Assembly: GCA_015680685.1 (NCBI GenBank)
Contig: MNCI01002704.1
Location: 413,622-477,621 of the forward strand
From: Gnetum montanum
Lineage: Eukaryota; Plantae; Gnetophyta
DNA length: 64,000 nt
Reading direction: 5' to 3'
The position numbers and the translations under genes are program-made. The notes below the pieces were generated by a model. It saw only the letters and a list, made by a program, of their open reading frames with translations. It made no database searches and had not been told where the DNA came from. Shown here one piece after another: positions 10,641-64,000 of the stretch (within the stretch, counting starts at the first letter, position 1; each line of letters starts with the position of its first letter).

Positions 10641-10746
10641 AGTTGTGTTTATCAATTTTATCCTAGTGTTCAATTTTATTGTCTTGAAGGCCAAAATTTT
10701 GTAATGATTATAATTTCATACACTTGAGCACTTATTATTTATTTAC

Positions 10747-10770
10747 GTGTGTGTGTGTATGTGTGTGTGT
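10747..10770 (+). repeat. (GT)n microsatellite
   Basis: gtgtgtgtgtgtatgtgtgtgtgt. Confidence 0.9.
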
Positions 10771-10865
10771 TTGTTTGTTAGTAGTTAGTCAATAATCCCA
10801 TACCTTCCAAAAATTTTGGAAGAAGCTTGTTCCTCCTTTTGTTCACTTGAGAATGAGTTTTCATT

Positions 10866-10879
10866 TAGTCATGGGGGTA
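10866..10879 (+). promoter_or_regulatory. polypurine tract (PPT) of element 1
   Basis: ttagtcatgggggta immediately before the LTR start TGATGAG. Confidence 0.7.
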
Positions 10880-14765: not shown

Positions 14766-14766
14766 T

Positions 14767-14784
14767 TGGCACCATTACTAGGAA
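14767..14784 (+). promoter_or_regulatory. primer binding site, tRNA-Asp type (decayed)
   Basis: tggcaccattactaggaa versus the Athila PBS TGGCGCCGTTGCCGGGGA; all differences are G>A or C>T transitions. Confidence 0.8.
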
Positions 14785-14899
14785 CTAGTTAATGTATGCT
14801 GAGTAATTGATTTCACAAAGTTCATTGTATCAAAACTCAATGTTAAAATTCATAACTATGAAGTAAGAACACTTAAAAAAATGTCTTAAATCATAACAT

Positions 14900-30400: not shown

Positions 30401-30952
30401 CATAATCTACAACCCTTATGAAACCTACTTGGTAGAGCTTCAAGATTTCATTGCTAACTACCAAGGCCAAATTAGGTTTAATCTTTTGCACTTTTTGCTT
30501 AACTGGTCTAATGCTAGGGTCTAGTATGATGTTGTGTTGGACTAGATGTGGATCTAGGCTTGGAATATCTTCATCTGACTAGGCAAATACTTTAATGTTG
30601 TTTTCTAAGATCTTGGTGATGTCTTGAGCACTTTGAGGCTCTAGTGAAGAACTTAGTTTAAGGGTTTTCTCCTCACCACTGTGTGTTATGACAAGAACCT
30701 CAACTAGAGACTCTTTAGTTATGTCTCTTGATTCTAAATTAAGGGTTTTGACTAGGGTTTCATGCCATTCTAGAGGTTTCCCTATTAAGGCTATGTGGTC
30801 TACAAGACTCTTAGGCTCAAGATCTAGATAATTAGGGTCAATACACTATTTAATATCACCGTGAGGTCCATGTAGACACAAAGGCAAACCAGTTGTTTCC
30901 AAGTTCTCATACTTTGATCCTGCATGTCAACCAAAAGCATATTAAGTGAAAC
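27472..30952 (-). pseudogene. pol: RT-RNaseH-aRNaseH-integrase remnant of element A
   Basis: TPWGTFGYTMMPFDLTNAGVTYQR...YIDD (29992-30180). LNPKKCVFG (29759-30019). aRH FDEAS...EYEGLI.G...GNSQLVV (~28950-29170). Integrase DNGPQF...SSPYYAQDNGQVE...LWAYRT (27823-28167). Confidence 0.92.
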
Positions 30953-33250: not shown

Positions 33251-33264
33251 NNNNNNNNNNNNNN
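33251..33264. other. assembly gap
   Basis: Run of N. Confidence 1.
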
Positions 33265-34161
33265 CCCCCACCTTTCTTCCACATTGGACATGGTGGCCCT
33301 AGCATGGATGAGAGGGGGATGATCATTTTATGTCATATTTAACCACTTTTGGCACTTTTAGAACCTCCAAATGGATTCAACAGGGTTTAGGGATCACCAG
33401 GCATTAAGAAATGGTTATTAGGTCATTAATTGAGAATAATTTCATCTTTTTCCACCTATCCATATTGACGGTGAGATGTCTCAGTGTTAAAGAAGCTTCC
33501 TCTAGCATGGAAAACACTAAATCCCAAATTTCAACTAGTTTTGACTAGCTTTGGTGGGCTTCCAAGGCTGTTGGAGATGCTTTGAGGCATTCTAGATCAT
33601 GTGGGGCCCATCTTATAGTCAACCTTGTGCTAGATGGGTGTTGGAGGATAAGAGTGGGTGTTACTCTCCTTTTTCCATGCTAGGCACTGTTGCCCCATCA
33701 TGGAATCCCATGGTGTCTAGCTTTGTTCATGTCTTACCCACGTTTGAAAATCCAAGGTTGAAAAAGAGAGGTTTGGGTTAACAAAAATAGAAAAATATTT
33801 GTAATTCTAATGATTTTGCAAAATAATATGCATGTTTCCATGCTTGGCATGGAATTCCTAGAGTGGATTCATGGGGTTAAGGTTGCTATAAGGTCGATGA
33901 ATGTTCTCAAGAGTTAGAAGAAGTACCTAAGCACATCTTCATCCACGATTCTTCTGTTGCTACTCCAAGGTAGGCATTTCTACATATTTTTGCCTTTTTT
34001 CTAATTTTTTCAAGTTTTTTTTTCCATGTGTTAGGATCATCTTTTTCTAGATATACTCTAGCGGAGAGATTAAAACGGAGTTCTAATCAAATCCCACCTC
34101 CTATTTTAGCCATTTCCAAATGGATCCATGATCATTTCATTGTTTTAGCTTTTGTAGATTC

Positions 34162-34535
34162 AATTTTGAAAATAGGGCTTGCTTTTTAATGCATTTTTTC
34201 CAAAATGGAATGACCATTTTTTTCAAATCTAGGCCTCTTGATTTGCTAAAATTATATTTTAACAAAATCCTACCCCATTATTTTAGTGTGAATTTTAATG
34301 GGAATTAATGATTTTGGCTATTTCAACTATTTCCATGGCTATATGAAATTTTGAAAATAGGGCTTGCTTTTTAATGCATTTTTTCCAAAATGGTATGACC
34401 ATTTTTTCAAATCTAGGCCTCTTGATTTGCTAAATTTATATTTTAACAAAATCATACCCCATTATTTTAGCGTGAATTTTAATGGTAGTTAATGATTTTG
34501 GCTATTTCAACTATTTCCATGGCTATATGAAATTT
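34162..34535. repeat. near-perfect tandem duplication, ~185-bp unit x2
   Basis: ttttgaaaatagggcttgctttttaatgc...ccatggctatatgaaattt occurs at ~34164 and ~34349. Confidence 0.95.
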
Positions 34536-35474
34536 AGGCTTTGAGGTTTTTGAAACTTTGATATAAAAAAGCAATCAAAGTTATATATTTTTTTGGTACA
34601 ACAGTTGTACTTTTATAAAATTTCAATTCATAGGTTTGTAGCTCTTTGTTTAAGATTTCCAATGATTATCATCTTGTTTAATTTGACCTTGAAATAAAGA
34701 AGTTAAGCTTGTTTTCTTTACGTTGCTTAGTTAAGTTGTTTGTGCCACTTTTGTAATTTCATGAAGTTTTGCAAATTTTTATAAGGAAACAGAATATGTT
34801 ATGGATAGTTTTTGGTTATGGTTTAGTATGCTTTGGCTTTATATTTTCAATGGAGGTAGAATCACTTCAATTGGACTTAAAAAAAATTCTACAAATTTTT
34901 TACTAAACATGTGTAATAAGGATGTTTGTGTTGTTTTCAAATTATTTTCTAAATTAAAATAAATTTCCTTCATAAATGGAAAAGGATTTGAATTTTTATT
35001 AAGAATGGATGTGTAGGGATAAATTTAATCTTTCAAACAGTGATGGAATCACTTTTTTTGGAGATCAAACAAATTTTTGGCAAATTTTTTACCAACCTTG
35101 CATGAAAGGGATAAAGTTTGACAGCCATGGTTTTGGCTAAATTATTTCATGTTTTATGGATATATGGATATACTTTTTTGATTTTTAATGGCCATGGCTT
35201 TAAGGTTCATAATTTCAAGATTCTTTTCATGGTGGAATCACTAAAATTGGTGTACATTACCCATTTGATGAATTTTTGATGAATTTTTTGGCTATGGCTA
35301 TGTGAACAAGGTAAAAGCATGGTTATAGTACATTACCCATTTGGAAATGGAAGTGGTTGATATGTATAACTTATGTTTTTCTTTTGTGAAAATGTAAAAC
35401 TAATGCTTAATTTTGCTTTTCTAAGTAGAGTAAAATCTTTTTGTATTTTAAATAAGCTTTTACTATGGCTACAT

Positions 35475-36150
35475 GGTTTTTTTCTAAGTTTTTGATGCTT
35501 TTTCTAAATTTGTGCATAGTTTAGATGCTTTTTCCAAATTTATGCATGCTCTACATAATTTAGATGTTTTTTCTAAATTTATGCATAACTTGCATGTCTT
35601 TTCCAAACTTACGCATAATTTATATGCTTTTTCTAAATTTATGCATAATTTAATTTAAGATAGTTTTGGCCTATAAAATTTTAGCTATAAAGGCTATAAA
35701 ATATGGTAACAATGTTTTTATGGAATATCTTAAACTAATTTAGATAAACAGCTAAGAGCTCTTTATAGAGGTTGATTTTACCTTTGACTTAGGAAGTTTT
35801 TCCTAAATTTGTTAAGAAATTCCAATTGGTTATGATGCAAGGTTATCCAAGGTTGTAATAATTTTTTTTTTGTGGAATTACTTAGACTAATTTAGAAAAA
35901 ACACCTTAGAGCTTTTTATAGAGGCTAATTTCACCTCCAACTAGATGGTTTGTCTAAATTTGCTAAGTAGCTCTAAAAGGTCATAACGTTTCTACTTTGA
36001 AAGGTTATAATAATGCCATTTTTTGGTGGAATTTCTTAAGCTAATTTAGATAAACACCTTAGAGATTTTTACAAAGGTTAATTTTAGCTTCAACTAGTAT
36101 GTTTTTTCTATGTTTGTTAAGAAATTCTGATAGGTGATAATATTCTTTTT
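35475..36150. repeat. tandem arrays: ~30-bp unit (tgctttttctaaatttatgcat..) then ~153-bp unit x3
   Basis: Repeated tttttctaaatttatgcat at 35475-35650; ctaatttaga(t/a)aaaca at ~35735, ~35887 and ~36042. Confidence 0.8.
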
Positions 36151-36849
36151 TGAGTTGTAATTTTCGCTATGGGTTACTAACTAGCTATGTATTGTTGTAT
36201 TTCAAGCCTCAAGACACATTGGCAACCCCAATGATGAGGGTGGGAATGACCCACCACTTCCTCCTTTGGTTGCCACTCAGCAGCCTCGTTTAGTTTAGCT
36301 TGTTGGCTATTTGTTTTTGTTTCTATGTTGATGGCTATAGTTCACCAAGACTATGTTATGGATGGTTGTTATTATTTGACATTCTTGCTACATATTGTGG
36401 CCATGGCTATGTATGTTATGGACATTCTAACTTTAAACTAAAATTTTGATCTTATTTTTTGACTATGTGCATCTATAGTAGTAGTAAACATTGAAAATGG
36501 TTATGTTGAAATTTTTGGTTTTAACATTTAATCAATGTTAAACAAAAGGAGATATAATAATAAAAGGAACGTTTTCTAGTTTTAGGCCATCACAAGCACA
36601 GGTTATATTGTTTTGCCAATTTAAGGCCATGGTAGGTCATATCGCCAATTTAGAGTCTTAGCAAATTATAATGCCAGTTTAATGTCTTATTTGACATAGT
36701 GTCAGTTTAACATCTTAGTAGACATGTATTTATAAGGATTTTTTGATCATAAGAAGGGCCATAGTAAATAGGAAAAAATGCAAACAAACTTAGGCTACAT
36801 GCATAAAATGTCAAATATACAATAAAATGCAAAATAAAAGTAAGGCTAC

Positions 36850-39800
36850 TTGTCTATCAATGCATTTAGTCCTAAGGGCATGGGAAGGTCAAGGTGAACT
36901 TCACTTGTACAGATTCTCCTAATCTTTGCAAGATTAGGGAGTGAGTAAGGCCTACTCTACATAAGCTTGTATTCACCATCCCCTTCACTTACAATGTTAA
37001 AAGGGAGTTCATTCCATAATGTATCCCATTACCTATTGTTGTCATCCTTGGTTGTCTTGGGTTTTTTCTCTTCATGGCTAGAAGATTCTTCTTGAAGCTC
37101 CAATTCATACCCCTATCCTATGTCTATGTTGTTGAAAACTAGGGGAACCATGTTATCACCATGAATGATGATTTCACCTCCCTCATAAGAAAGATGAATT
37201 TCTTGATGGATGGATGAGGACATAGCTCATAACTGAGCCAACCAAGGTCTTCCTAGGATTAGGTTGAATATTGGTGTCTCTTCTACCACCAAGAAGTTGG
37301 TGGTTGTAGGGAATTATTCTCTAGCTACAAAATCCAAGGCGATAGACCCCTTGATGGTAACTCCTAATCCATTGAAGGTCTTAAGAGCTATAGTGGTTGT
37401 AGGTTGTACTTGCTTAGTTAAGCCTAAACATTCAATGATATTGCATGGGATGAATTTCATTGTAGCTCCATTATCAACATGCACCTGATGTATTTTAAAT
37501 TATCCTATATGTATGGTTATGAATAAATGGGTTGTAGTCACCTGGCCATTCTAGGGATTAACTTTAATTTCATATCATGAAATGTTAAGGCTGTTGACTT
37601 CTCCTCCCCTAGTGAGGGAGGAATCATCACTACATGGATAACTTTCTCATTAGCAAGAATATCCTCACTAATAGGTATAGAGGTTAACATTTTGACTAGC
37701 ACCTCATGATTTGTGCTAGAAGTCATGATTAGGTCATACAGGCTTAGGGTTGTTTTTTTCTATTTGAGGGATTGCCTGACTTGGTCCATTGCACTAAGGA
37801 AGTTTTTATTGTTGGTCATGGGCTTCTCACCATAGTTGTGCTTTACTTCCTCCATGCATCCCAAAATGTAGAATTCAACTTTAGGCTTTGGCTATTGTGG
37901 CTCTTCCTTGTTGTTTTGGTTGTGGTCTTTGGTTTCCTCTTGTTGCTTATTGGTTTAAGGGGTTAGGGTAGAGGAGGTCATGGGTATAGCTGAAATGGAA
38001 GTGGTCTTTGGTGGACCTACTTCCTCTCATACCTTTGTATGCTTGTCTCCCTTGTTATCAAGCTTTTACTCATGCTTCTTCCTTTGTTTGGTTATAGATT
38101 TTTGGTTATCGGCCATTGGTTGTAAGAAAGAGGTAGTAGCATTGGCCACCATAGGGGGTCATTGTATAGTTGGTTGGGCTAAGGCTTTTTGGGTTGTATT
38201 GGATTGGGAGACCTTGATGAGAAAAGGTTTCCTTGGATGCATTCATGATGGTACTCTCATAACAAAGGGCGATATTGAGGTATGGGAATCCAAAGAAGCC
38301 CTTTCATTGTAGAGGAATACTTGAACCATAAATGGTTCTCTTGCAGGTATCTAATTGTCATCAATGTTGAATGTTGAAATAACATATGGACTATCATTAG
38401 CATTCAATGGATCTTTGTAGACTTGCATTGACTAGTTTTGTGACCAAACTAGGTTAGAAGCATCTAAGACTAGTTTTCCACTATCTATCAGCCTTTGCAG
38501 GTCATCCTTCAATGTAAGGCAGAAGTTTGTATCATGACTAGGAAATTGATGATTATGGCAAAAGCAATCTAGCTTGAAGTATCTAGGTAACTAGGGATCA
38601 TCCTTCATTGCCCAATTGGGATCTCTAGCTATTTCACATAGTCTCTCATGTTTCTTTTGAGTGGCTTCAGTCATTTTTTTGTGTTGCATGCACCCACTTA
38701 TTAATACTTTATCTAGTAACTCAGATGGTTTTAATGGTAACATAGTGTATTTAGACTTGTCCTTCCTTTTGAAGTTAGGCCTATTTGTTGTCGATGCAGT
38801 GGTCCTAGAAGTTGATGGTTGGTTATTATGGTTATTGGTGGGGGCCTTGGGTAGATTGACCTTCAACCCTTGTTTCATGATTTTTTTTCCTTGGTTATAG
38901 TTGCTATAGTAGTGTTGTTTTGTTTGCTCTTTTCTTTTTCTCTTCAACCATGTTGGTTTTTATATGCTATATAGGCTAGATTATGACTAGCATTTATGGT
39001 ATCCTCTATATTTTTAGTTTGTAAGAATGATTGGCTAAGAGACCATAGGTCAAGGTAGTAGAGTTTGGAATTGATGAAGTTATTAACTACTCTCTTGAAT
39101 ATGGCTAACAAGTGGGCTTCAGTTATGGGCTTTGGTATTTCATTCAATAGTCTATTTAACCATTGAATGAACTTCTGTATGGGTTCTAACGTCCCCTGCT
39201 AGACCTTCATGAGTTGGTCAAGCATTGTATCAACCTTCAAGTTATACTTGATGTGGTTGACAAACTAGGCTACTAAGTCCTCCAAAGAGGATATGGATCC
39301 TCTCGGCAATGCATAATACTAATCAAATGCTTTCCTAGTTAAAGACATAGGAAAAACTCTCATGATGATATGAGGCTATGGCTACAAGAGTAAACATTTT
39401 GATCAAAAGGTAATAAGATGAGCATTAGGATTACCTTCTCCATTATATTTGCTAAATTGGGGAATGGGGGCACTAGGAGGAAGTGTTAAGGGTGGGACTA
39501 CAAAACTTATGGGATCATCTTGGTAGAAGTCCATAATCTTGATAGTTTTTATGGTAGAGGCTTAAAGCCTCTTCAACTCCTTCATTAGTCTTGGATCATG
39601 TGGAAGGTTTGATCCAAGCTTTGCAGTGGTCACATAGGTTTTGAGGTTTGTACATAAGGTTGTGGTGTCTATTGTGAGGCTTGCAGCCTTGTCATGGATT
39701 GCATGATAGAAGGAAGAGGTTGTGTTATGGTTGTGGCTTGTGGGCCAAACAAAGAAAAAGATGTTTTTGCTAGTACTTGAGGCTCAAATGAGACAAATGG

Positions 39801-40330
39801 GGTGTGTGACCCTTGTGTTTCTTGGGATCCCATGGTGGATCTTGTGTGAGTAGTTAATAGATTTTTGATGGTAAAAACCACCGTTGATGATTTTATATAT
39901 TGAGACTATGTTGTAAATGACATTGATTTGCTATAGTTAGTTGTTTGTGGTATTGGCTAAGTGTGATGTGTGGCTATAACTGATGTGGGATTTACTATAG
40001 TAGGGTAGGAAGGAGTGGAAGGTGGTGGCACCATGCTCATAGAGAAAAAAAAGCATTAGAGGAAGGTGCTATGACTTTGGGGGATGTTTGTTAGAACAAT
40101 CATTCCAAGATGCTTTTAGGCTTGAATTCTACCTTAAATTCATCCTCTTCTTCATGTTGTTCCTCAAAGCTAGGCTTGTCATCTTCCTCTTCCATGACAA
40201 TCAATTAGGTTTGGATGCTAGAATAGATGTCATTAAGGGAAATTTGGTCATACAGGGAAGGGATGTACTTTTTTCCACCCTTATGTATGAGCTCAAACTC
40301 CCTTTTTTCCTTAACTTCAATTCATGGAAT
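36850..40330 (-). pseudogene. gag: gag-protease remnant of element A
   Basis: Minus-strand gag with KYNGEGNPNAHL (~39420-39455), a Cys/His knuckle (~38520-38570), and protease VHVDNGAT (~37460-37485) and FNLILGRPWL (~37240-37270). Confidence 0.85.
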
Positions 40331-47109: not shown

Positions 47110-49602
47110 GTAGTATGGATTTAAATAGGAATGATTGATTGGATTGGCTAACTGATTTCCATCCTTGTTAGCTATTCTAAACACACCATTCTTGTAGGCT
47201 CTAGTGATAATAAAGGGCCATAACAATTTTCAAAGATAATCCTATGATGACATATTGCTTCAATTTCTTGCATACAACATCCTTTTTAGTAGTTAGGACT
47301 TGTGAGGATTCGTCATGCATAAGGTAAAATATAATATCATCATGAATGATGGCCACAAAGGTATCCCTGGTGTTCTATGTGATGGAAGTAGCACAGTTCA
47401 TAGTTAAGGTGGACAACTTACTAAACACATCTAGTGTCATACTAAGGGCTAACGTTGCAATTGCAAAGCTATGATGTTCTTGTTTCAAGGTATGTGTTGG
47501 ATATTCATGTCTATGAATTTTTGTAACAATTATTCTCCTAGGTCATAGTAAGGTTGTAAGTGTTTGGATTTACATGAATAGACTTCGGTTACTTACTAAA
47601 CCATGAGTTGTGAATTGCCTTTGATTGCTAAGCATCTACTTTCTCGGTTATGAGCTACAATCATCCCTTTGATCAAACCCTTGTACTCTGCTATGTTTTT
47701 GGTACATGGGAACTCAAAACAATAGGCAATGGGTTGAGTCTCACCAGATGGAAATTCTATGATGGAAGTAGCATTGGCCCCATGGGAAGTTGAAGCTTCG
47801 TCAAAGTGCATGATCACCTCATAATCCTCAGAAACTTAGCTCACTATCTTACTATGCTCATTAGGGAATTCAAGATCTATGACTACTTCATCATCAATAG
47901 GTGAAATCATGAGTTGTAAGGCTATAGCTTGACCTTTCATTGAGGATGAAGAGACATAATGAAGGTCAAACTCCATGGTTATGGCTTTCCATTGGGCTAT
48001 ACGAGTACTTTCATAAATGTTTGTTATGGCTCTAAGTATGTTGTCTTTGCAAATGACATTGACTTGGCTTCTAAAGAGGTAGTGTCTTCACTTCTTCAAA
48101 GAGAAGACTACTGCTAGACAATACTCCTTCACTTTAGTGTATTAGGCCTCATGGAAAACAAATGCATGGCTAAGGTAGTATATAGGAATTTCTACTCCAT
48201 CATCATGTTTCTGACAAAGTAGAGAGGCAATGAATGCATCGAATATGGCAAGGTAAATGTAAAATGATTTACCTTCTTGTGAAGGATAGACTATTGATAG
48301 TTGTATCTACTCTTGCTTAAGGTTTTCAAAGGCCTATTGGCATTGAGTCCTCCACTCATAGTAAACTCCTTTCTTAAGCAAATGTTGCATGGGTTGTAAT
48401 TTATTAGCAAGCCTAGTGATAAACATACAAATAAACTGTAATCTGCCTTATAATCTCTAAAGCTCCATAAGGTTGGTAGGCATTGCTAATTTGGATATGG
48501 CCTTAACCTTATCAAGATTGGTCCATGTCCTTGCTTTAGAAACTACAAAGCCAAGCATCTTATTAATCTTGACATCGAAGATACATTTCTTGGGATTAAG
48601 CCTAAGCTCATATTTGAGGCATTATTTAAGCACAAGGTCTAGGTTATTAGCATGGTTATTGGCCACTTTGAACTAAATAGCTATATCATCTACATAATCA
48701 TTGAGAAAATCCAACATGTAATCACTGAATATATAGGTCATCACTCATTTATAGGTCACTCCAACATTCTTAAAGTCGAATGACATCACAGTATAGCAAA
48801 AGGTACCACATGGGATCATAAAGGTCATGCTAACTTAGTGCTCTAGGTTAATCCTAATTTGATTATATCCTAATAACCCATCCATAAAGGACAATAAGAC
48901 ATGTCTGGCCATAGTATTAATAAGTTGATCAATACTAGGCAAAGGGAAGTTAGCCTTGATAGTAACTTTATTTAGGTCTTGAAAATTGATGCAAATATAG
49001 ATACTCCCATTCTTCGTAGGGACTACCACTATGTTGGACACCCATTTTTCATAGTTGATAGTCCTAATAAAACTAGCTTGGTATAGCTTTAAGATCTAAT
49101 TATCAACTACCAAGGCTAAATCAGGTCTAATCTTGTGCACTTTTCGCTTAACTATTCTAATGCTAGGATCTAGTGTGATGTTGTGCTAGACTAAATATGG
49201 GTCTAAGCCTATCATAACTTCACATGACCAAGCAAAGGTTCTAATGTTTCTTTGTAGGACCTTGGTGATGTCTTGAGCCTATTGAGGTTCTAGTGAGGAA
49301 CTTAGTTTAAGGATTTTCTCCTCACCAATATGTGTTGTGATAGGAACCTTAACTAAAGAGTCTTCGATTATGTTACCTACCTCTAAGTTAAGGGTTCTAA
49401 CTAGGTTTTCAAGCCATTCTAGAGGTTTCTCTATCAAGGCTATGTGGTCTACAAGATTCTCAAGCTTACGATCAAGGCAATCAAGGTTGATACACCATTC
49501 AACATCACCATGAGGTCCATGTAGATACAAAGGTAAAATAATTTTCTCCCAAGTACTCATACTTTGATCTTGCATGTCAAACAAAAGAATATTAAGTGGC
49601 AC
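47110..49602 (-). pseudogene. pol: RT-RH-aRH remnant of element B with integrase core deleted
   Basis: NIVVVPTKNGSIYICINFQDLNK...FPLPSIDQL...FMDGLLGYNQI (48835-49041). aRH HFDEAS...NIAEYKGLIKG (47596-47817). The integrase jumps from its N-terminal region to the GPF region at ~47220-47240. Confidence 0.9.
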
Positions 49603-52600
49603 CTAGGTAAAAGTAAATAAAAAATTTTAAAATGCTATAAAATCATGTAAACACATGTAGATCTAATGCAAACAAGGTTGTCCAAGGCTATAAATAGGGA
49701 ATCAACAAGAAAAAAAAGTGCAATAAGGACTAAATAAATGTCAAACCAAGGTTAAACAAAGTAAAGTATAAGAAATAAGACTACCAATGATCAAAAAGGC
49801 CATAATTTGACTAGTTTTTGGCCTTAATAGGCCATGATGCTAGTTTAAGGCCTTAATGGATGATGGTCACATGGTATCAAATAGTGGTCAAGGAAGGTTA
49901 AACCCTACTATTTGATATCATTCAAAGGCCAAAAAATGGAAATAATGCTACAATATATAATGCTATAAAGACCATAAGAAGATTAATAAGGTTGACAATG
50001 TAACACTAGCCTGAAACAAGTCAAAGCATCATGTAATAAGGCAAAAATCAAGCAAAATAGGTTACATATGATGAAATTTTGCTAATATAGGTAAAAAAAG
50101 GATTAGTTTTTACTAGTTTTAGGCCTTAGTGAGCCATGTCTTGAGGTTTCAAGGTTATTGGATGAGTTCAGGCATTAATCAAGGCTATTTCTAGTCTGTT
50201 TGGACCTAAAAATTAGGATTTTTTAGGCTTTCATATTGGGCCCCCCTTATTTCCACACTAGTTGGCATGGAAGAAGGGATTCTCAACATGGAAACCAATG
50301 AGAGTATATTTCAGAGCATCCATAGGTCCAAATTTGAGTTTCCAAGACCTCCCAAAGGCAATGTAGGGCCAAATCTATCAAAATTGAACACTTTGAAGGT
50401 CTATAAAGGCCAAAAGGCAAGCTTTGAAGCCTCACCCATGTTTCCATCCTAGAAAGCATGGAAAAGATGAGGTTTAACGTGAAGAACCAATATTCAAGTT
50501 AAAACAAGATCAAACATGGTTAAACAGGTAGTCAAAATCTAGATTTGGGAGTTGTGCATCCCTTAGCTTTGTTTTAAGACAATTTGAGGTAAGTTTGAGC
50601 ATTAAAAAATGTTGAAATGGCTTCCCCATCCTTCTTTTTCCACATTAAGCATAGTATCCCTAACATGGAAGAATGGGAGGAACACTTTTTTTGTGGATTT
50701 AGAGTGGTCTGAGAGCACATTGACCAAGTTTCTAGGCCCCTAGAACTATAGGTCATGATTCTATAAGTTTCTAGTTCATTTTGGGCATGTTTGGAGATCA
50801 TTAAAGGGCACCTAACGTCTTTCCCTATTTTTCCATGCTAGGAAAGTTGCTCCAACATGGATGAATAGGGGGAATGAATTTTAGAGGTCAAAATGAGGTC
50901 AAACAAGTAAAATTTTCAGCCTATGAGGTTTTAGGCTCATCCAACGTAGATCTTTGGCTTCCAAGAGTGTTGTCTTATCACCAAAGTGGAAAATCAACTT
51001 TTCCCCAATGTTTTCACACTACCCAACATGAAGGGGATCTTCTCTAGCATGGATGGAGAAAGAATATTATTTCTAGATCAATTTTCATCATAACCGACCA
51101 TGCATGTCAACTTCTACGGTTGCTAGGGCCAAGCGCTAGGGTTTCTATTAAAATTTGGTAATTTTATGTACTTTTGGATGTTTTTTGGGCTTTTCCCCTT
51201 TTTTCCACCTTAGAGCTAGGGAGCTCAGTATGGAAGACTAGGGGAACCACTTTTTGGCCATTTGGAATTAGTTTTCTATGGTTTGAATGCTCTAATAGCT
51301 ATTAACAAGGTTCTAGAGTGCATGCATACTTGTTTGATGTTATTCTGAGGTGTTTAAGAGCTAAAAATATGTTTTCTCATCATTTTACACATTGGACAGT
51401 GTCAAGGAAGGGATACCTAGCATGGAAGAATCATAAATCTTAGATTTAGACCATTTTTTACCTTAATAGATCATGCATGTGTGCCTCCAAGGTTGTCAGG
51501 GTCAAAGACTAGGGTTTTAGGTCAAGTCTAATGAGTTTGGAGGTTCCCTAGATGGGTTTCAAGCTTCTCCCCTATTTTCCACAACAAGGATAGCATGCTC
51601 AGTGTGGAAGACTAGAGATAGAAACTTTTGTCTCTCTATGATCAATTTTGTAAGGTTTGAGGGCTCCAAAAGGTGTAAAACTAGTCCTAGGGTTCATGTG
51701 AGGCTATAGGGTGACTAACTGAGGTGTCTGAAGCTCATTTTGAAGTCTCCCGAAAATTTCCCTCTATGTACCATGTTGGGAAACATGGAAGAAGTGGCTC
51801 TAAACATGGAAGAACTAATGAACTGTAATTTTTTCCATTTTCTATCATCTCTAGCTATGTCAAAACTTGATCATTTCAAGGGTTATTAAGTAGTTTTTGG
51901 GCTTTCACCATATTTTCCCCACTAGGGCTTTCATGCTCAGAGTGGAAGATTGGAGAGAAGGATTTTTTGGCTATTTGTGGTCAATTTCAAAGAGTCTAAG
52001 GGTTCTAGGGTGAGTAGACAAGTTCCTAGAACACACACAAGGATTTCTAGCATTCATTTAAGGTCCTTGAGAACCATTTTAGTGTCCCACCAAAGTTTCC
52101 CCCTTTCCACCAAGTGGGTCAATGTGGAAGAGGTGGATCCTAGCATGGAGGAACCAACACTAAATTTTTGCTACATTTGGTAGTTTTGACTATGCATTAG
52201 TATCTACATGATTGCTGGTGTTGTCTATCAATGTCTATGGTCAAAATCCAATTATTCTAAAGGCTATGAGTGGGTTTTTAGACTTTCCCCCCTCCATCCA
52301 CACTAGGGTTGGGATTCTCAACGTAGATAAGTTATTCCCTGGTGTGAAGAGCCCAAGGAAGATAAGTTTTGATCATTTTAGATGACTTCTAGAAGTCTGG
52401 TGGCTTCCAAAAGGTCTAGGTTGCTTTTGGAATTTGAACTACATGAAAAATCCAATGGTTTTAACTTCTCCCCCTTTCATCCACATTGGGACTAGGATTC
52501 TTATCATGGAGGGGATCCTCCTCAACATGGAAGTACCTTAGGAAGTTGATTTGTTTCATTCTAGTTGCTTCTAGAGGGAATATCAAGGTCCTAATGTTAG

Positions 52601-55494
52601 GTACAAGGTAATTTGACATTGTTTTCTTATTTTTGGGATCCCCTACTAACTTTCCTAGTCAATCCTCCTAGTTTTCCACCCTAGGTAGCATGGAAGAGAT
52701 CTCCCTCAATGTGGAAGAACTAAGAAAATAATGTCTATGCTAGTTTGATAGCTAATTGACCATGCATGTTAGTCTCTGGGGTTGCTAGTGTTGACTGTCA
52801 ATGCTGGGTGTTAGGATCCAGCAGTTTGAAGGTTCTTAAGTACCTCATGTAGTTTTCCCCCTTTCTTCATGCTAGGCATGATGACCCTATAGTCGATGAA
52901 ATAAGGATGGTATTTTTGTGCCATATTTAACTACTTGTGGGACATTTGAAAGCTCCAAAGGGTTCTAGTAGGGTCTAGGTATTACCAAGCTTTGAGAAAT
53001 GGTTACTAAGTAGTCAATTTAGGTCATTTTTTATTTCCCCCATCCATCCACATTGGAGATGAGATGATTAGCATGGATGAAGCCTTCCCTAGTGTGGAAA
53101 CACCAAATCCTAAGGTTTTTCCAAATTTTGACCAATTTCAACTAGGTTCGATGAGGTTCCTTGTCTACCAAAGATGCTTGGAAAGGATCTAGGTCATGTG
53201 GAACCTACTTCAGAGTTAAACATGGGCTAGATGGATGTTTGCGATTAAGAATAGATGTTGCCCCCTTTCTTCTAGGTTGGGCACTATTTCCCCAATGTGA
53301 AAACCCAAATCATCTAGTTTCGTCCATGTCCAATCCATTTTTGGAAGCTTGAGGTTGAAAAAGATAGTTTTTGTTTCCTAGAAATGGTAAAATGGCTATG
53401 TTTTATTGCTTTTGTGAACTGGAAGGATATATCCCTACTAAGCATGGTACTCCTAGCATGAATGCATGAGTTAGGGTTTGGTTATGTTCTAAGTATCAAA
53501 AGTGACTAAATCTTAGTGTTGATGTAATTTTTTAGCAAAGAGGGAAGGTGTATGGTGGGGTCCATAATTCAAAAATTTGAAATTTTGAATTTTGAGCTTA
53601 ACTACCATCAATCTTAGTCTGGAAGAAACTTCGCCCAACCCCACCCACCCTTGCACTTTAGTGTAGTTGGAGTTATCATCTACTACTCTAGCAATTGGGA
53701 TTTAGAGATGGGCATTTAGGTTTAGATGTGTTTTAATGCCAAATTTTACAAGTTTTCAATCACAATTATCATTCTTGAAATCTATCCATTGGAGGAGAGA
53801 TTTGGTAGATAATTTTATGGTAGAAGCAACCTATCCTCAGCATGGAAGCCTCATTCCTTCTTGCACATAGTGTAGAACTCCTATTTTTCTTAATTTCAAT
53901 CATCCACAACATTGAGCCTATCATGGCATCTAAGCAACATGGATGAAAGAACTGGAATCCTAGGATTCAAAAGGTGGATGATCATACCTATAAGGATTAC
54001 CTAGTCCTATCTCAATCTAGGCTTCATTTGTTGCTACTTTGAGGTAGGTAGTTCTACCTAATTTTACTTGGTTTTTTGGTTATTTTCATTACTTTTTCTT
54101 ATGTTTTTGTTGCCACTTATGGTATCATTTTTCTCAAATCTATGCTAAAAAATGGGATAAAACAAATTGATGATGAAATCAGCCATCTTATTTTGGCTAT
54201 TTCCATTCAAATCTATGGTTGTTTCATTATTTTGGCTTTAGTAGATTTAATTCTTAAAATAAGGCTTGCTATTTTTTATCCTTTTGTCCCAAAATCTAGG
54301 GATAGGACCATTTTCTCAAATCTAGGTCAATGTGTTTGTTAAAATTAAATTTTGACAAAATCCTATCCATTATTTTTGTGTTTTTTCTAATGGGTATTTA
54401 TCATTTTGGTTGTGTTGGCTATTTTTTTATAGCTGCGTTAAGTTGGGTTTTAGCTTTTTAGCTTTTTACATCAAAAAAGAAAGCAATGTTGGGTATTTTT
54501 TTCTTAAGAAAATGGCTACATATTTCTCAAATCCAATCTTATGGGTTCATGGTTCTCTATTTAAGATTTCCAATGGCTATTGTCACATACAATTTGGCTT
54601 TGAAATGACTATGTTATGTCTATTTTCCTAAGGTCATGCAGTTAGGATCATTATGCCATTTTTATATTTTCATGTAAATTCATGAATTTTTTCTTAGCAA
54701 ACAACAAGATTTTTGGCTATTTTTTAGCTATTTCTAGGTATTTCTTGGCTTCATCTTTCCAATGAAGGTGGAATTACTCTAATTAGCTTTAAAATAAATT
54801 TTTTATGAATTTGTTTCTAAGCCTTTGTCAAAAGGAGATTTGTGTCATTTTCAAATTCTTGTCCAAATTAGTGAGTTTCTCTGAATAAAATACAAGGGTT
54901 TTGAATTTTTATTAAATATGGATGTGTAGAAGTTGATTTGAATGTTCAAATGGTGATGGAGTCACTCTGATTGCAGTTGAAACAAATTTTTGAAAATTTT
55001 TTACTAACCCTATGTGGAAAGGGATTAATGGTGATGGCTATGGTCTTTGCTAATTTTCTTTGTATTCCATCTAATAATGGTTATGTATTTCTTATTACAA
55101 TGATTATGGCTATAATATTTATGATTTTAGGATTTCTTTTATGATGGAATCATTGAAATTAGAGCCCAAACAAATTTTTAATAAATTTTTGGTTAAACTA
55201 TACAAATAAGGTTAAATTTTGTATGGATGTGATTACTATGTGTAGTTTTTCTTGTAAAATTTATGTTTTAAATTTTTTTAAGAAAATAAAAGGCTTCACT
55301 ATTTTTAGAAAGATTTTTACTATGGCTACTAAGTTTCAATGATTTTTCTAAGTTTATGCATGTTTTAAACAAAGGCTTAATCTCTAGTAGACATCATTAG
55401 TCCATGTTACCTTATAGAGATCAAGTTAATCTCTAGCTTGATCTCTATTGCTTTGACTAGATATTGATGCTAAACTTTGGTTGTTTCTTTGCAG

Positions 55495-58190
55495 GACCTT
55501 CCATCTCTACTAATCTCACCATACCACTTTCAGGGGCACATCATGAGGACATATTATCCTCAAGTTTGGTGAGGTGATACTAGCATAGGAGTGGCTGTGG
55601 GGATAGGTGCCTGGGTACATTCAAGCAAACATCTAGCATGCAAGTTTACTTGATGTATTTATCACACCCATCCCTTCTATCCCTACTGCAAAGATGTTGC
55701 ATGTCATTGACTCCTTCAATGAGAAGGCTAGTCATTTTAACACCATCATTCAAGGTGTGAAGGTTAACATGGACATTGATGAGGGTCTCTTTTGCAACAT
55801 GTTTAGTGTCCTCGCTGACAAGCTAAAGGTTCTAACAAGAATAGTGGAGAAATCAAGCCATCATGATGAAGTTTTGAAGTGGCATGATGCCAACATGGGC
55901 CACTTCAAAATTTCCATGGATGACTCCATGAACCCTAATGCAAATAAATCCTATCCTTTTTTTAAGTCTTATGCATTTCCTAAACTATTATTGCAAAAGA
56001 AGATGATTGGCATTGCGTAGGGGTGGACCTTTAAGAAGGTCCTGATAGATGACACCAGGCTCAACTAGGCAACTACTTTGGCTATTGGGCTTCAAGATGG
56101 GGTCCTTAGACTCTGCACAAATACCTCTACATTAATCCACATGTATTTTGCATTTTTTTTTTGCAAGTTATTTGAAGAGGTTTGTGGAGTTTCTAGTCAT
56201 TTATAGGAATGGATGATGGGTTTCCCAAGACCCAAGCCGACTTTCTATACCTTGGATAAAGCACATTTATCCAGTGGAGCAGGCTTAAAACCCACCAAAG
56301 GGAATGGATGATACATTATCCATTACCACCAAGGATCTTAATGTTAGGTAGTTTGAGTTCCCTGATAGCACAAATGATGAGGAGCCTCTCACATTCCCAA
56401 TAGGCATTCTAAAGGTCAAACAATGACATAGAAAGACCAGAGAGACAGCTAGAAAGAAACTCAAGAGTCCCATGGAGGAAGCGCTATCAACATCAAAGCA
56501 ACCTACCCCGAAGAAGCTTAAGTTCAAGCTTAAGCCATCATAGTAGGCAGTCATAGGTATGCTCTGTTTAAATTTAGCAATTTTATGTTATAAAGTTTAT
56601 GGCTATGTTATGATTTCATGTGTTAACTAGTTTTCTATGTGTTATGGTTGTAGACAAGCACTAGGTCATGGTAGCCCAAACTACTATAGGGGAAGAACAA
56701 AGGTGTGTAGGAGAGACACTCCTCAAGCAACTTGAGGTTGAAGGGTTTGTTGATGCAAATATAAATGATCTATATGCCTTGTTCAATGTGGTGGTAAAAA
56801 TTTCATCCCTCGTCATCATTCTAGAGGAAGAGGAGGAGGAGACATGTATGTCACGCCTTAATTCTTTCATCATATCTTATGGTTTAATTTTGGTTTTCAT
56901 CCTAACTATTCAATGATTTTTATGCTTATAGTAGTTCCTAAGCCACTAGTGAAAGCCCTTGTCACTAACTTTCTCATGAAACCATGGGTGAAGGCCCTAG
57001 GCAAGGTGGAGTTCATGCTTGGGATGGATAAGAACATCATTGACTAGTTGCAATATGTTATACCTAAGATAGGTAAGGACTTGCTTTTATGCACCTTAGT
57101 TGTTTGGCTATGTTATAGGCTATGCTTGTGTTACGACTATCTTAGATTATACATTATGTTAATGATTGTATTTCATGCTTGTGTAGTGCCTTTGCAATGG
57201 AACCCTAGTAGAGACATGGAGACTAACTCCTTACTTAAGCTTCCCTTTAATGTATCTAGTATATCCTTGAAGTTGTACAAGACTATTATTGATCTAGCAA
57301 TGTTATGTTGAAAAACTTCATGGGAGCTAGAGAGGTCCAACAAATCCCTATGGGAAGAAGTTCTGGGCTTAATGAAGAAGACTCAATGATAGGAGAAAAC
57401 TATTACAGTTCTTGAATACTAGAGGCCTTTGTGGAAGCCCAAGTGGCTAACTTAGGAAAATTCCATACTAGGGAGATCACATGGGCCCACTACTCACATG
57501 TCACTCAAGACAAAGTAGTAGTCTTATAGGATATGATAGAAAAGTGGATGCAAATAGACCTCATCTCCTTGAAGGTTCACGACTAAAAAGATCACTACGC
57601 TTGGGTCCTATAGTGGGATAAGAAACAAAAGGTCCACAAGTGATAGTACAAGGTGGATCATGGGGCCTACCTTAAGTGGCTTAACAAAGAGTCATTTGAA
57701 TGGTGCAAGAAGGAGTTGTTCATCCATGGGATCTAAGTAGAGAGTGCTTATTAAATTTTTGAGAGTATTTTCATAGTGGAGTAATTCCCTACTACTTACA
57801 TTACCACTACTGTAGGTGAGACCTCTAAAGTTGCTATGGCCTAGAAGCTACCTACTTGGACTATGGTAGATAGGACCAACATCCTTTCTAGCATTGATCT
57901 TGGGGATGTTGACTGGATCAACATGATGAGGAATGAAATCCTCCATTGTTTGGTGAAAGGCCTTCCACATCTACCCCTGAAAGTTATGTAGTTAGAATAC
58001 CCACAAGTTTGATAAATTTTATGTCTTCTACTTTTAGTTTTTGTTTATGGTTTTAGATATTGGTTGCTAAATGGCTATGTGTCATTGTATTTCAAGCATC
58101 AAGAGACAATGGCAATCCTAGAAATGAGGGTTGGAATGATTGACCACTTCCTCTTCAAGATGCCCCTTAGTAGCCTCCATCAGCTTGATT
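55495..58190 (+). pseudogene. antisense, intron-containing extra gene remnant inside element B's PR-RT spacer
   Basis: Coding-like exons (55694-56020 and 56668-56845) separated by T-rich GT-AG segments at 56557-56653, 56846-56931 and 57073-57186. Acceptors tttgcag (55494) and tttcaag (58096). Confidence 0.6.
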
Positions 58191-58879
58191 TTTTGGCTAT
58201 TTGTTTTTATTTTCATGTTAATGTCTATTATTAACCAATACTATATCATAGATGGTTGTTATTATTTTTTGACATTTGTTCCACATAGTGTGGCCATGGG
58301 TATGTATGTTATGAATATGTTAAGTCTAAATTTAAAATTTAAAATTTTGGTTTTATTTTTTGGTTGTCTATATTGTTCTAGTAAACATTGTAAATGTTGT
58401 GAACATTGTGAAGGGCTAGGTTGAAATTTTTTAGCTATAAAATTAGATAGCTAATTAATGAGATAATAGGTTAAATAAGAAGTATAATAATAATAAAAAG
58501 ATGTTTGCTAGGTTTAGGCCATCATAGGCACAAGTTATATTGTGTTGCCAATTTAAGGCCATAGCAGGTCTTGATGTCAGTTTAAGGTCATAGCAGGTCT
58601 TGATACTAGTTTAAGGTCATAATAGGTCATGTTGTGTGATTATCTTTGCTAGCTTAAGGCCATGGTAGGCCATTATTCTAGTTTACGATCATAGTAAACC
58701 ATTGTTAAAGAGAAGCTTATATTTTTTGGTGATTTTATATTTTAAGTTATTCAAGGATTTTAGATTGTTCATAACATGAGTAAAAGCAAATAAGAAAAAA
58801 TGCAAATGAAAGTAGAAACTTAGGCTACATGCATAAAGAGTAAAACAAATTATATAAAAAAAATATCACAAATTAGGCT

Positions 58880-61800
58880 ACATGGCTATTGATGCATCTG
58901 GTTATAAGGGCATAAGATGAAAAGGTTAAAGTATATGTCACTTGTGTAAATTCTTTCTAATCTTTGCAATATTATGGAATGAATAAGGTCTACTCTACAC
59001 TATCTTATATTCATCATCCCCTTTAGTGATGATGTGAAAAGGGAGTTCATCCCATGACACATCCCATTTCTTATCATTTTCATCATTGGCTTTCTTAGGT
59101 TATTGAATTTCATGGCTCAAAGCTTCTTCTTGAAGCTCCACTCTAGACGCTTGCTCTATGTTCATAATGTTGGTAGCTAGGGGAACAACATTATCACCAT
59201 GAATAATGATTTCACCTCCCTCATAAGAAAAATGAATTTCTTGATGGATGGATGAGGATACAACTCATAATTGAGTTGACCAATCTCTTCCCAGAAAAAG
59301 GTTGAACCCTAGTGTTTTCTCCATCATCAAGAAATTAGTAGTCATGGGGAATTTCTTCCTCACCATGAAGTCTAAGGAGATGGACCCCTTGATAGAAACC
59401 TTGGATCCATTAAAAGAATTGAGGGAAATTGTTGATGTATGCTATATTTGCTCAGTTAAACCTAAGCATTCAACAATGGTGCATGGGATGATGTTAGTTG
59501 TAACTTCATCATCAACATGCACCTAATGCACTTTGAACTACCCTATACATATAGTTATGAATAGAGGAGTTGTATTTACTTCACCATTTTGCGGATCAAC
59601 CTTCATTTCTCTATCATGAAATAAGAGTGGTATTAACTTCTCCTCACTTAGCAAAGAAGGAACCATCACTACATGGATGGATTTCTCGTTAGTAGGGATG
59701 TCCTTACTAATGGGGATAGAGGTCAACATTTTGACTAAGTCCTCACAATGTGTAGTAGAAGTAATGATCAAGTCACATAAGCTTAGAGTTTTTTTTTTCT
59801 ACTTGAGGAATTACCTGACTTGGTCCATCATACTAAAGAAGTTTTTATCATTAATTGTGGACTTATCACCCTGGTTGTGCTTTACTTCCTTCATGCTCCC
59901 CAAAATATGAAATTTAGCTTTAGGTTGTGATAATTGGGGCTTTTCCTCATTGTTCTAGTTATGGGCTTTGGTGTCTTCCTATGGCTTGTTGGTTGGAGCA
60001 AGTTGGGTAGAGGTCACGGGTAAAGCCAAAATGGGAGCGGGCTTCGAAGGGACCACTTCCTTCTACGTCTCCTTCTACTTGTCACCCTTGTTGTTGGGAT
60101 TTTGCATAAGATTCTTCCTTTGCTAGGTTAATTTTTTTTTTTTGTCATTCATTGGTTGTGAGGAAGAGGCAGTAGTATTAGCCATCACATGAGGTCATTG
60201 TGTAGTTGTTTGACCTATGGTTGTTTTGGTTGTGTTAGGTTGAGATACCTTTATAATAAAAGGATCCCTTGATGACATTCATGATGGTATTCTTATGATG
60301 AAGATGGATCTTGAGTTGATGGAGGCTAAAGAAACCCTTTCATCATAAGGGGATACTTAGATCACATATGGTTTTCCTGGGGTTTCCAATATTTATTAAT
60401 GTTGAATGTTGAAATGATGTAAGGGCTATCATTAGCATACAATAGGTTCTTGTAGACCTACATCAACTAATTTTATGATCGAATTGGGTTGGAAGCATCT
60501 AAGACCAGCTTCCCCTATCAATCATCCTCTACAATATGAGGTAGAATTTTGTGTCATGACTAAGTAGCTAGTGATAATGACAAAAGTGATCTAGTTTGAA
60601 GTACCTAGGTAGTTTTTGATCATCTTTTGTTACTATAGTGGGTTATTTGGCTATTTCACAAAGTCTATCATGCTTCTTATGGGAAGCTTCAGATAGTTTC
60701 TTGTATTGAATACACCCAACTTTTTATAAGTTCATCTAATAGCTTGGATGGCTTTAGAGGTAAGGTAGTGTACTTAGACTTGTCCTTCCCTACAAAATTA
60801 GGTCTCGTTGTTGTCAATGTAGTGGCCCTAGAGATTGATGTTTGGTCATTGCAGTCATTAGTGAGGGCCTTAGGTGGGTCATTCCTTGGCCCCTAGTTTC
60901 TAGTCTTTGTTTCTTTGTTCATAGTTGCTACAATCATATTGTTTTGCTTGTTCTTATCTTTTTTTCTCCATGTATGTTGATTTTTATATGCTATGTAGGC
61001 CAAATCATGACTAACCTTCACAACATCCTCTATATTTTTAGTTTAAAAAAATGCCTGGCTAAGAGTCTACAAGTTAAGGTAGTAGAGCTTGAACTTTATG
61101 AAGTCATTAGCCACTCCCTTAAATATGATCAACGAGCGGGCTTCAGCTATAAGCTCTAGTATTTAATTTAGTAGTCCATTCCACAATTGGATGAACTTCT
61201 GAATGAGTTCTAGGAACCCTTGCTTGACCTTCATAAGTTGGTCAAGCATTGTGACAAGCTTCAAGTTATATTTAAAGAAATTGATAAATTGGGTAATTAA
61301 GTCCTCTAGAGAGAATATGGATTCCCTAGGTAATGGTACGAGGTCATGGCTATAAGAGAAAGCATTTGAATAGAAAGATAATAAGATGAGCATTAGGATC
61401 ACCTTCTTCATTGTATTTACTAAACTAGGGAAAATGGACAACAGGAGTAAGTATCAAGGGTGGGACCATAGAACTGATGAGATCATCCTAATAAAAGTCC
61501 ATAATCTTGACAACTTGTGAAGTAGAGGCTTTAAGCCTCTTCAACTTCTCTATTAGGTCGTAGATCATCTAGAAGGCTTGCTCCAGGACCTGTGATGATC
61601 ATGTTGGTTGTGGGGTTTGCACATAGGGTTGTGACATTTGTTGTGAGGCTTGTGGCCTTGCTATGGATTATAGGATGGAAGGAAAAGGTTACGTTATGGT
61701 TGTAGCTTGCAGGAAAAACAAAGAAAATGATGTTTATGCTTGTACCTAAGGCACAAACAAGATAAAGGGGTTGTATGACCCCTGAGTTACTTGGGGTCCC

Positions 61801-62302
61801 ATGGTGGACTCTATATAGGTGGTTAATGGACTTGTAGTGGTGAAAACCACCATCAATGATTCTACTAATCAAGGCTATGTAGAAAATGACATAGATGTGT
61901 TATAGGTTATTGGTTATGATGATGATTGAGTTTGATGTGTGGCTATGACTAGTGTGGAACTAGTCATGATAGGATAGGAAGGAGTGAGAGATAGTGGCAC
62001 CATGTCCATGGAGAAAACAAAAGTGTAAGCGGAAGGTGCTATGATCTTGCAAGACATTTGTTGGAATAATCCTTCCACGATGTTTTCAAGATCATATTCT
62101 ATCCTACATTCATCCTCCTGCTCTTATTATTCTTATGAGCTATGCTTGTCATCTTCCTCTTCCATCATAATCAATTGAGCCAGAATGTTCACATAGATAT
62201 CCATTAGAGGTATTTCGTCATACAAGGAAGGGACTTACTCTTTTCCATCCTAATGTATGAGCTCAAACTTCCTTTTTGCCTCTACTTCCATACATGAAAT
62301 CA
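58880..62302 (-). pseudogene. gag: gag-protease remnant of element B
   Basis: ORFs 59538-59771 and 61163-61441 match A's 37538-37726 and gag region; protease VHVDD motif at ~59505-59525. Confidence 0.85.
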
Positions 62303-62444
62303 TGAGGATAGCCTGCATTTTTTTTTGAGAGAGAGAATGTTCGGGATTGTATTACTGAGAAATATAGTACACAAGTATACAGTTTAAGGGTCATCAGTGA
62401 TGGCCCACTGGAAAAAAAGGGGGGGAGGAGGGGTGGGAGCCTCA
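62303..62444 (-). repeat. putative 3' LTR of element E (~142 bp)
   Basis: Minus strand TGAGGctccc...gctatCCTCA (5-bp inverted termini), preceded by tttaggagggg-tgc. The partner LTR is outside the window. Confidence 0.65.
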
Positions 62445-62447
62445 GCA

Positions 62448-62458
62448 CCCCTCCTAAA
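62448..62458 (-). promoter_or_regulatory. PPT of element E
   Basis: Minus strand tttaggagggg, 3 nt upstream of the LTR start. Confidence 0.65.
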
Positions 62459-62685
62459 CTCAAAACTCAAAAACCAACAACTAGGGGAGGGCAGGTGGGT
62501 GCACCCCCAACAAACAGAAACGACCCCCAATGACCAATCGCTGTCCCCCACCACCAACCCACAAGGGGGGGGGGCCACACCCAGAAATGTGGGAGGGGGG
62601 GCAAAGAAAATAGAAAGCATTTGCGCTGCCGACGGGGGGGGGGGCCTTAGGGGCAGGTCGGTAGATGGCGGCAGGCGCACTGCGG

Positions 62686-63994
62686 TCATTCAAGTTCATG
62701 GAGCAAGTCCAGGGTGTTGTGGTGCTCTTCAGTGTTCATGAAGTTCGCCGCTTGTTGGATGCTCTGCATGACAGACTCTCGCTTACTCCGATCAGCCGGT
62801 GAGTCCCCAGCGTCCGGATGGAATCTTGCTGACCTGCACTGAATATGTCGCCTAAGCTCCCCCCAGGAGCTCTCACAACTTATGCCCAAGATACTGTATG
62901 GGCAGTGTCCCCCCCTAAGCCACTGATGGGCACTGTGCTCGTGTGCCCGGTTGAGCTGTCTTTGTCATTGGTCTTCCTCTTCTTGCAATCGTTCATGTTC
63001 TTCCCTTGCCACCTGCTTTTGGGCTTGATGGGCCACCTCCTCCTGGCACAGCTCCTCCCTAACCTGGTCTCGGATCTCATCGATGAGCCAGGCCCATGTA
63101 GCCTCTACCATGAGCACATGTTGTCATGTCATCTCTTGTGCTTGTTCGTGGAACTGGGCCTCTTGCTCGACACGAGATTGGGCTAGGGCCTCGTTCCACT
63201 TTGCCTCCCACTCCCATCGTTCTACCTCCCACACAACAATAGCCGCCTGTTTTTCGGCAAGGTGTAACTCCGCATCCTAGTTCGGGGGGCATTGGGGGGG
63301 TCTGGTAAGGGATGCAAGCTATGTTGGGAGCAGCGTCCCCAGGTGAGACTCGTAAGGTGAGTTTTCAGGCTGGGGGAGGTTGAAGAGGTGGGGGGGCATC
63401 AGAGGTGCTCCCCCCAGGGGGTAGAGGATGGGCCTAGCACCCCCCCCCCCCCCCCCCCCCNCACAAAGCCAAGATCAACCCCGAGTGACGACCGTGTCGT
63501 TTAAGGCAAAGGATCTCCAGGAAAAACCACGGGATGTTAACCTGGATGCCGAACTTCAAGCACTACAAAAAGACAAAATGCAAGCCCTGAAGCTTGGATG
63601 CATTGCCAGACTAGACAAAAAAATGATCCACCAAGTTGGTAGCCCGGGTCTAGAGGCATGGGAGAGAGGATCTAGGAACTTGGCAGCTCTGCGTTCTAGG
63701 TATGGGTCCCTCGAAAAGGGTCGCAGCGTCCTATAGGCCATGGGTAGTGGACAGGAAGATTTCTCCTACAGCCGGGGCCCCCAAACAGCTGGCAATGGCA
63801 GATTCTATGATGCAAATCTTGCATCCTTGGAAGTGGGTTCTGTCAACGTTCCAATTTGCAAAGAACACATCGTCAGCAAGGTCTGGGTCACCGACCAGCC
63901 GCTGCAACGGGCTAGACCAGCCGCACTTGGTGACCAACCACCACAGCTCCTCATCTTCCCAAAAAGTGGCACAGTCAGGCTCGAACATCGGCAT
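62686..63994 (-). pseudogene. extra ORF of element E: retrotransposon eORF-like domain + Pro linker + coiled coil + J-domain
   Basis: One frame from 63994 to 63461 with four TAG stops, one frame change near the poly-C/N tract (~63440-63461), then one frame through the coiled coil and J-domain to the TGA at 62686. Confidence 0.75.
62704..62901 (-). other. DnaJ-like J-domain with HPD motif
   Basis: PYSILGISCESSWGELRRHIQCRSARFHPDAGDSPADRSKRESVMQSIQQAANFMNTEEHHNTLD follows J-domain consensus spacing (YeiLGv....s..eikkayrkla.kyHPD...f.ei.eAyevL.d...R..yD). HPD is at 62820-62812. Confidence 0.8.
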
Positions 63995-64000
63995 GGCATC

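Follow-up and report, generated by a model that had tools for sequence, protein, structure and literature searches.

The window (the whole stretch of 64,000 nucleotides analysed here) ends in 1.7 kb with a GC content of 52-57%, vs. 37% in the adjoining sequence. The minus strand of this part carries a decayed copy of an abundant repeat, likely one of a large plant genome, with a diverged J-domain, set in an AT-rich element of another kind. The features, from the upstream part of the J-bearing element to its host, are as follows.

63464..64000 (−): coding-like upstream domain in this GC-rich element, with 179 codons of which four are TAG, extending past the window end
63440..63461 (−): run of 21 G plus one N; the reading frames differ on its two sides (either a true frameshift or a fault of the assembly)
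63280..63439 (−): proline-rich linker, TAG at 63321
62965..63279 (−): segment rich in E, Q and A, likely a helix or coiled coil, with stops at 63279, 63126 and 62967
62716..62901 (−): diverged J-domain (Pfam PF00226, E = 9.7e-5)
62812..62820 (−): HPD motif, intact in the window copy
62647..62688 (−): TGA 62688-62686, 12 codons, and TAA 62649-62647, the likely frame end of the family
62327..62646 (−): 3′ untranslated region of 320 bases with G/C runs; few relatives cover it except for its last 40-80 bases
62446..62455 (−): 8-nt purine run followed by TG, the putative PPT and LTR start of the sequence-only reading
62318..62326 (−): A9 tail and junction with the host element; host homology reaches the A9
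58753..62325 (−): AT-rich gypsy-like host element, likely its gag-protease part, carrying the J-bearing insert; 73.5% identical to 36734-40330

The sequence-only reading had translated the minus strand correctly, with internal TGA codons starting at 63126 and 62967 and the HPD at 62820-62812 (−). The TGA at 62688-62686, which it took for the end of the frame, is not the frame end of the family, as most relatives differ there (592/612, 988/1031 and 834/865 in depth); the next in-frame stop, 12 codons further, is TAA 62649-62647. Each of the nine internal stops is either TAG or TGA, and the sole TAA is the last stop. The downstream frame of 270 codons contains 5 stops vs. 9.6 expected, a deficit that does not prove coding for the window copy by itself. 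For the upstream frame the numbers are 4 and 7.0; a neighbouring frame also contains 4, and the frame was thus chosen by eye. Three open reading frames on the opposite strand (62833-63183, 62388-62738 and 63425-63733) and one on the minus strand (62387-62689) had no Pfam match and were dropped as coding frames.

The segment between linker and J-domain contains 23 E, 14 Q and 13 A per 102 residues, a composition from which we infer a coiled coil. The upstream domain gave a sole, weak Pfam match to Pkr1 (E 0.025) and none to RT, zf-RVT or RNase H, and a protein search at 315-2000 aa (271 candidates) found no longer relatives of it. Within the 64-kb window nothing else is similar to the J-bearing element and no gag or pol belonging to it was found; the 1.68 kb of it that lie within the window include neither a reverse transcriptase nor its 5′ end nor a target-site duplication.

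The J-domain and its family

The stop-free stretch of 92 amino acids at 62964-62689 matched the Pfam DnaJ model (PF00226) with E = 9.7e-5 and 22.8 bits, below the cut-off of 27.8; residues 22-83 align with positions 2-60 of the 63 in the model. DnaJ was the only family to match among 24,736 Pfam models and, since it had been named by the sequence-only reading before the search, the E-value indicates a match well outside what chance would give in 64 kb. In a phmmer search of the PDB, 39 of 40 matches were J-proteins, among which we count Sec63, Sis1, 1wjz and 2cug, each match being weak (best E 0.018). In the structural check that had been suggested, the single-sequence AlphaFold model was weak (pLDDT 53.7), and 19 of the first 20 Foldseek rows were titled J or Hsp40, none with E ≤ 0.001. 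The weak model contains helices at residues 34-46, 56-73 and 78-91, and the HPD (residues 49-51) sits between the first two of these. The ESM Atlas result for this stretch was uninformative (best score 0.77, low recognition).

Several residues of the window copy are atypical: Ile replaces Tyr25, Gln-Cys occupy the basic helix-II positions 26-27, Ala-Gly follow the HPD, Met probably replaces Phe47, and Met is likely also found at 57, the alignment being uncertain at both of these positions, which typically bear large hydrophobic residues. Tyr25 and Arg26 matter in the J-domain, residue 36 is sometimes dispensable, and Met47 is found in a natural, working J-domain (PMC1906734). Judged from its sequence, the J-domain is real but diverged.

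The J-bearing segment is not a one-off. Contigs and reads of four sequencing runs were aligned to 62200-63455 at 80% likeness, and in each of three organisms more than 2,200 contigs of the DNA runs aligned, host-flank contigs included (2,358 in A, 2,216 in B and 2,509 in C). All 30 bins of this stretch were covered in the DNA runs. Alignment depth does not equal copy number here, and no aligned piece spans the whole stretch. Among 22 sequencing runs listed, 10 share words with the stretch, none more than 0.18 of them; no RNA run was listed as containing it, which says nothing about expression.

The stops of the window copy were compared with its relatives in the three DNA runs. Relatives differing inside the codon made up 157/162, 219/224 and 199/199 at stop 63321, 201/212, 210/210 and 173/242 at 63279, 203/244, 1074/1143 and 373/382 at 63126, and 716/771, 1203/1410 and 835/996 at 62967. 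The stops look like decay of the window copy. Most relatives differ inside all five, so that in the family the frame was likely open, with its probable end at 62647. No intact copy was seen among the aligned contigs of the three organisms. The transition bias to which the sequence-only reading had pointed is borne out, the two types expected if the window copy lost methylated C making up 73/116, 74/112 and 78/124 of the differences among those listed.

Within the frame, the J-domain bins at 62830-62955 are the deepest (5,300-11,400, vs. 349-2,308 over 62998-63165), which suggests that they are better conserved. At the HPD bin (62788-62829) depth dips to 527-999, vs. 2,470-11,400 in the J-domain bins on either side, and many relatives are clipped at 62843-62846. 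Owing to this dip and to the lack of a spanning piece, conservation of the HPD among sibling copies is not established. Of the oligo-dT RNA reads, 574 aligned, equally in both directions; 445/574 are less than 90% alike, and 72% run on into unlike sequence. The two directions and the low likeness assign the reads to other copies, and they indicate neither the strand nor a transcript of the window copy.

A protein search with the helix and J-domain together found no relative at E ≤ 0.001 among 1,835,955,588 representative proteins, save one J-repeat protein (P0001). This protein has 679 amino acids and six near-identical J-domains with an HPD in each, is 27% identical, and is possibly an artefact of assembly or prediction. 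The downstream frame had no relatives at 141-450 aa (388 candidates). Viral contigs gave one weak match (38% over 39 residues, E 7e-4), and related loci were found neither in metagenome contigs nor in further viral scans.

These results bear on whether the J-like domain is a passenger, a piece of a captured host J-protein gene or a relic that does not engage Hsp70, amplified without function. Such capture is known in plant retroelements (PMC7264820), and the sub-threshold Pfam score, the altered Tyr25 and post-HPD residues and the depth dip at the HPD bin would all fit a passenger. Against it, transduced pieces are usually present in one or few copies (PMC7264820), whereas this J-domain occurs in many copies in three organisms and the stops in its frame are not shared. 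Nor did a host donor emerge among the 1.84 billion representatives at E ≤ 0.001, the six-fold J repeat being the single match. We consider a passenger rather unlikely.

The 3′ end and the carrier

The sequence-only reading had placed a PPT and a 3′ LTR downstream of the frame. The purine run is 8 nt long (62455-62448) before its TG; sites of this kind number 101 in the window, and when the untranslated region was shuffled 2,000 times, 113 of the shuffles gave one. The supposed LTR occurs once in the window, which does not reach the 5′ end of the element, and 121 bases past the purine run the element stops in A9 (62326-62318). Of that reading, the intronless frame, the multicopy mobile element and the J-domain behind a long charged helix were supported; the LTR element with a PPT and 3′ LTR was not.

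Homology to the host element reaches 62325, a junction at which T4 stands in the other host copy. The contigs that leave the stretch at 62300 or 62321 (21-35 per run, mutual agreement 0.76-0.82) are evidently host DNA without the insert. Depth crossing 62327 into the A-run was 11,718/15,884 in run X1, 424/691 in X2 and 11,079/15,620 in X7, and 26/40 among RNA reads. Past 62318 the RNA reads are mutually discordant (n = 17, median 69 letters, agreement 0.49), as expected of varied flanks. Folding of the last 124 nt was ordinary (z = −0.96) and did not support a 3′ stem-loop. Two marks of LINE-type insertion were thus seen, a 3′ poly(A) with varied flanks among the rows listed and a T-rich target, and the 3′ end looks like that of a poly(A) retroposon inserted at a T-rich site. 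Poly(A) is the 3′ end of most plant L1s (PMC3747384).

Depth is 2,645-16,272 over 62326-62367, vs. 3-281 over 62410-62661; in X1 and X7 it drops from ~15,000 at the tip to ~100 where the supposed LTR would begin. In the ~40 bases that precede the A-run (62326-62367), depth exceeds that of the next bin ~10-fold in X1 and X7, and less than 3-fold in X2. A more abundant LINE or SINE family sharing the tail in some species may be partly behind this deep tip.

Two readings would derive the J-domain frame from an LTR element. In that of the sequence-only reading, the element integrated normally, with its frame in a presumed env position and a short 3′ LTR of ~122 bases (TG...CA) ending at the A-run. 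Short LTRs exist, 8 purines precede the TG at 62447 (borderline in the shuffles), and the last C and the first A of the tail make CA. However, the two ends have only TG and CA in common, the A-run is present in most family contigs, and host contigs, leaving at 62321, explain just four of the nine T's. Depth is not level along the supposed LTR, as an LTR would have it, but steeply graded, from 16,272 to 41 in X7. A normally integrated LTR element is quite improbable.

The frame could instead come from an LTR retrotransposon family and the window copy be its RNA, pasted in by LINE machinery with PPT, U3-R and poly(A) but no U5. Such RNA would jointly explain the purine run with its TG, the short remainder of 121 bases, the A9 and the T-rich insertion site, and the upstream domain presumably resembles the extra ORFs of plant LTR elements. 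A precedent is HERV-W, in which 135/213 elements have such a form (PMC5016936). Yet parent LTRs predict a shared, U5-like continuation past the tip, and none was found among the 18 DNA loose-end rows listed; the putative PPT and U3 start has among the lowest depths of the stretch, and two single contigs, weak evidence with their short sides, join the tail to the untranslated region and skip it. LINE-processed LTR RNA is unlikely, yet the 5′ end lies outside the window, and the 3′ end alone would fit a LINE, a non-autonomous, LINE-dependent retroposon or LINE-processed LTR RNA as carrier.

Possible function and known parallels

Our preferred reading, to which we give a probability of roughly 40%, is that of an abundant poly(A)-ended repeat with a J-domain behind a charged segment, inserted in the LINE manner, whose protein recruits Hsp70, most likely onto silencing complexes. 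The family would consist of LINEs that bear an additional ORF at the 3′ end, or of non-autonomous elements mobilised by a LINE, and target-primed reverse transcription of poly(A) RNA would have inserted the window copy. The upstream domain, linker, helix and J-domain would formerly have been one protein, in which the N-terminal domain selects a target and the J-domain makes Hsp70 clamp there, as SV40 T antigen does.

A J-domain stimulates the Hsp70 ATPase beside whatever the rest of the protein binds. A predicted layout of target domain, flexible linker, long helix and terminal J-domain fits a class C adaptor, and we infer that the element's J-domain protein would recruit Hsp70. Viruses use J-proteins to direct host Hsp70 (PMC13254874). 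At methylated DNA in Arabidopsis, the J-protein SILENZIO acts with Hsp70 in silencing (PMC8616336), and DNAJ1/DNAJ2 are J-proteins that oppose silencing (PMC6711733); three 2026 preprints link J-proteins to the PICKLE remodeller. One plant accessory ORF whose product has been tested encodes a nuclear protein (PMC7264820). For these reasons, the Arabidopsis J-proteins at methylated DNA and the nuclear accessory product, host chromatin silencing is, by analogy, ranked first, if tentatively, as the target of recruited Hsp70. The element's own RNA-protein particle is a possible target with a somewhat smaller share of our confidence, and any other target is doubtful.

The most specific form of this proposal, which we regard as speculative and improbable as a whole, is that a plant non-LTR family, whose accessory protein ends in a J-domain and otherwise resembles the extra ORFs of LTR elements, turns the J-protein/Hsp70 chromatin machinery of its host against silencing, making it the transposon counterpart of polyomavirus T antigen. 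J-domains are already known as tools of phages and polyomaviruses. In SV40/polyomavirus T antigen and in phage Rki (RB16/RB42/RB43), as here, the HPD J-domain of a selfish element is joined to other sequence, there directing host Hsp70 (PMC13254874, PMC3486835). In contrast to these virus proteins, the one here is carried by a genomic retroposon and has its J-domain at the C-terminus; its activity is predicted, and the copy is dead.

The accessory ORFs of plant LTR elements offer a second parallel: Athila/Bagy2 env-like, Grande gene23 and Retand TRP28 are likewise family-wide ORFs that lie close to the 3′ end, contain coiled-coil-like parts and lack a host homologue (PMC7264820, PMC11963269). 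They differ in that a J-domain is not named for them (0 occurrences in PMC11963269, main text) and in that the present element ends in poly(A). Closer in end type are insect R1 LINEs with a viral SF1 helicase and plant L1 with an archaeal RNase H, poly(A)-class elements that carry a foreign domain at the 3′ coding end, and an anti-silencing role has also been proposed for such acquired domains (PMC4686597). Those domains are fused to ORF2 with its RT, whereas the present one is a co-chaperone module that no RT accompanies within the window. If the purine run is a PPT, HERV-W processed pseudogenes would match the present end in having U3-R and poly(A) at a T-rich target (PMC5016936), although the parent LTR element is putative here. 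SILENZIO and DNAJ1/DNAJ2, J-domain adaptors at methylated, transposon-related DNA, serve as a model for the proposed target (PMC8616336, PMC6711733); these are host genes, and the likeness drawn here is one of role.

The sequence-only reading knew of no plant LTR lineage with a J-domain ORF, and a search of literature titles and abstract openings listed no transposon-borne J-domain. None is named in the main texts of PMC7264820, PMC11963269, PMC5408684, PMC10410713 and PMC13254874, and the main texts of two J-protein surveys have 0 occurrences of "transpos". Accessory domains of retroelements are a known kind, and a J-domain among them appears new. Since plants use J-proteins and Hsp70 at methylated transposons, an element-encoded J-protein would, if true, be a direct counter-move, and would open a first recognisable way into the biochemistry of a class of accessory ORFs in plant retroelements. 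Such an extra accessory ORF would itself be unusual if the carrier is a LINE.

Host element and other repeats

The gypsy-like host element is present twice in the window, at 28570-40330 and 47241-62325 (−), in collinear copies that are 65-78% alike. The pair aligns at 73.5% over the 3.6 kb next to the insert, and RVT_1 (E 4e-12) and RNase H were found in a collinear block at 47800-48999; the host gag and protease were read by eye, with no Pfam match in the segments tested. The gap between the gag-protease-like part and RT-RNase H contains ~380-base repeats (family D14) and measures ~5 kb in the first copy, vs. ~8 kb in the second. We assume that an Ogre-like split of protease from RT is possible in this element, and from a second RNase H, recognised by eye, we take the neighbouring elements to be of the Tat/Ogre-like clade; such neighbours suggest that the DNA is that of a plant.

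Reading by eye also showed, at 55500-58000 (+) in the second host copy, a degenerate stretch similar to RT/RNase H; it is missing from the first copy, had no Pfam match in the frame tested, and is likely another nested element. The first host copy contains, at 34162-34535 and 35490-35657, a recent tandem duplication of 185 bases (96% alike) and a 30-base tandem array. Elsewhere in the window, 916-5691 and 15840-20628 form an old repeat pair, 65-70% alike and ~14.9 kb apart.
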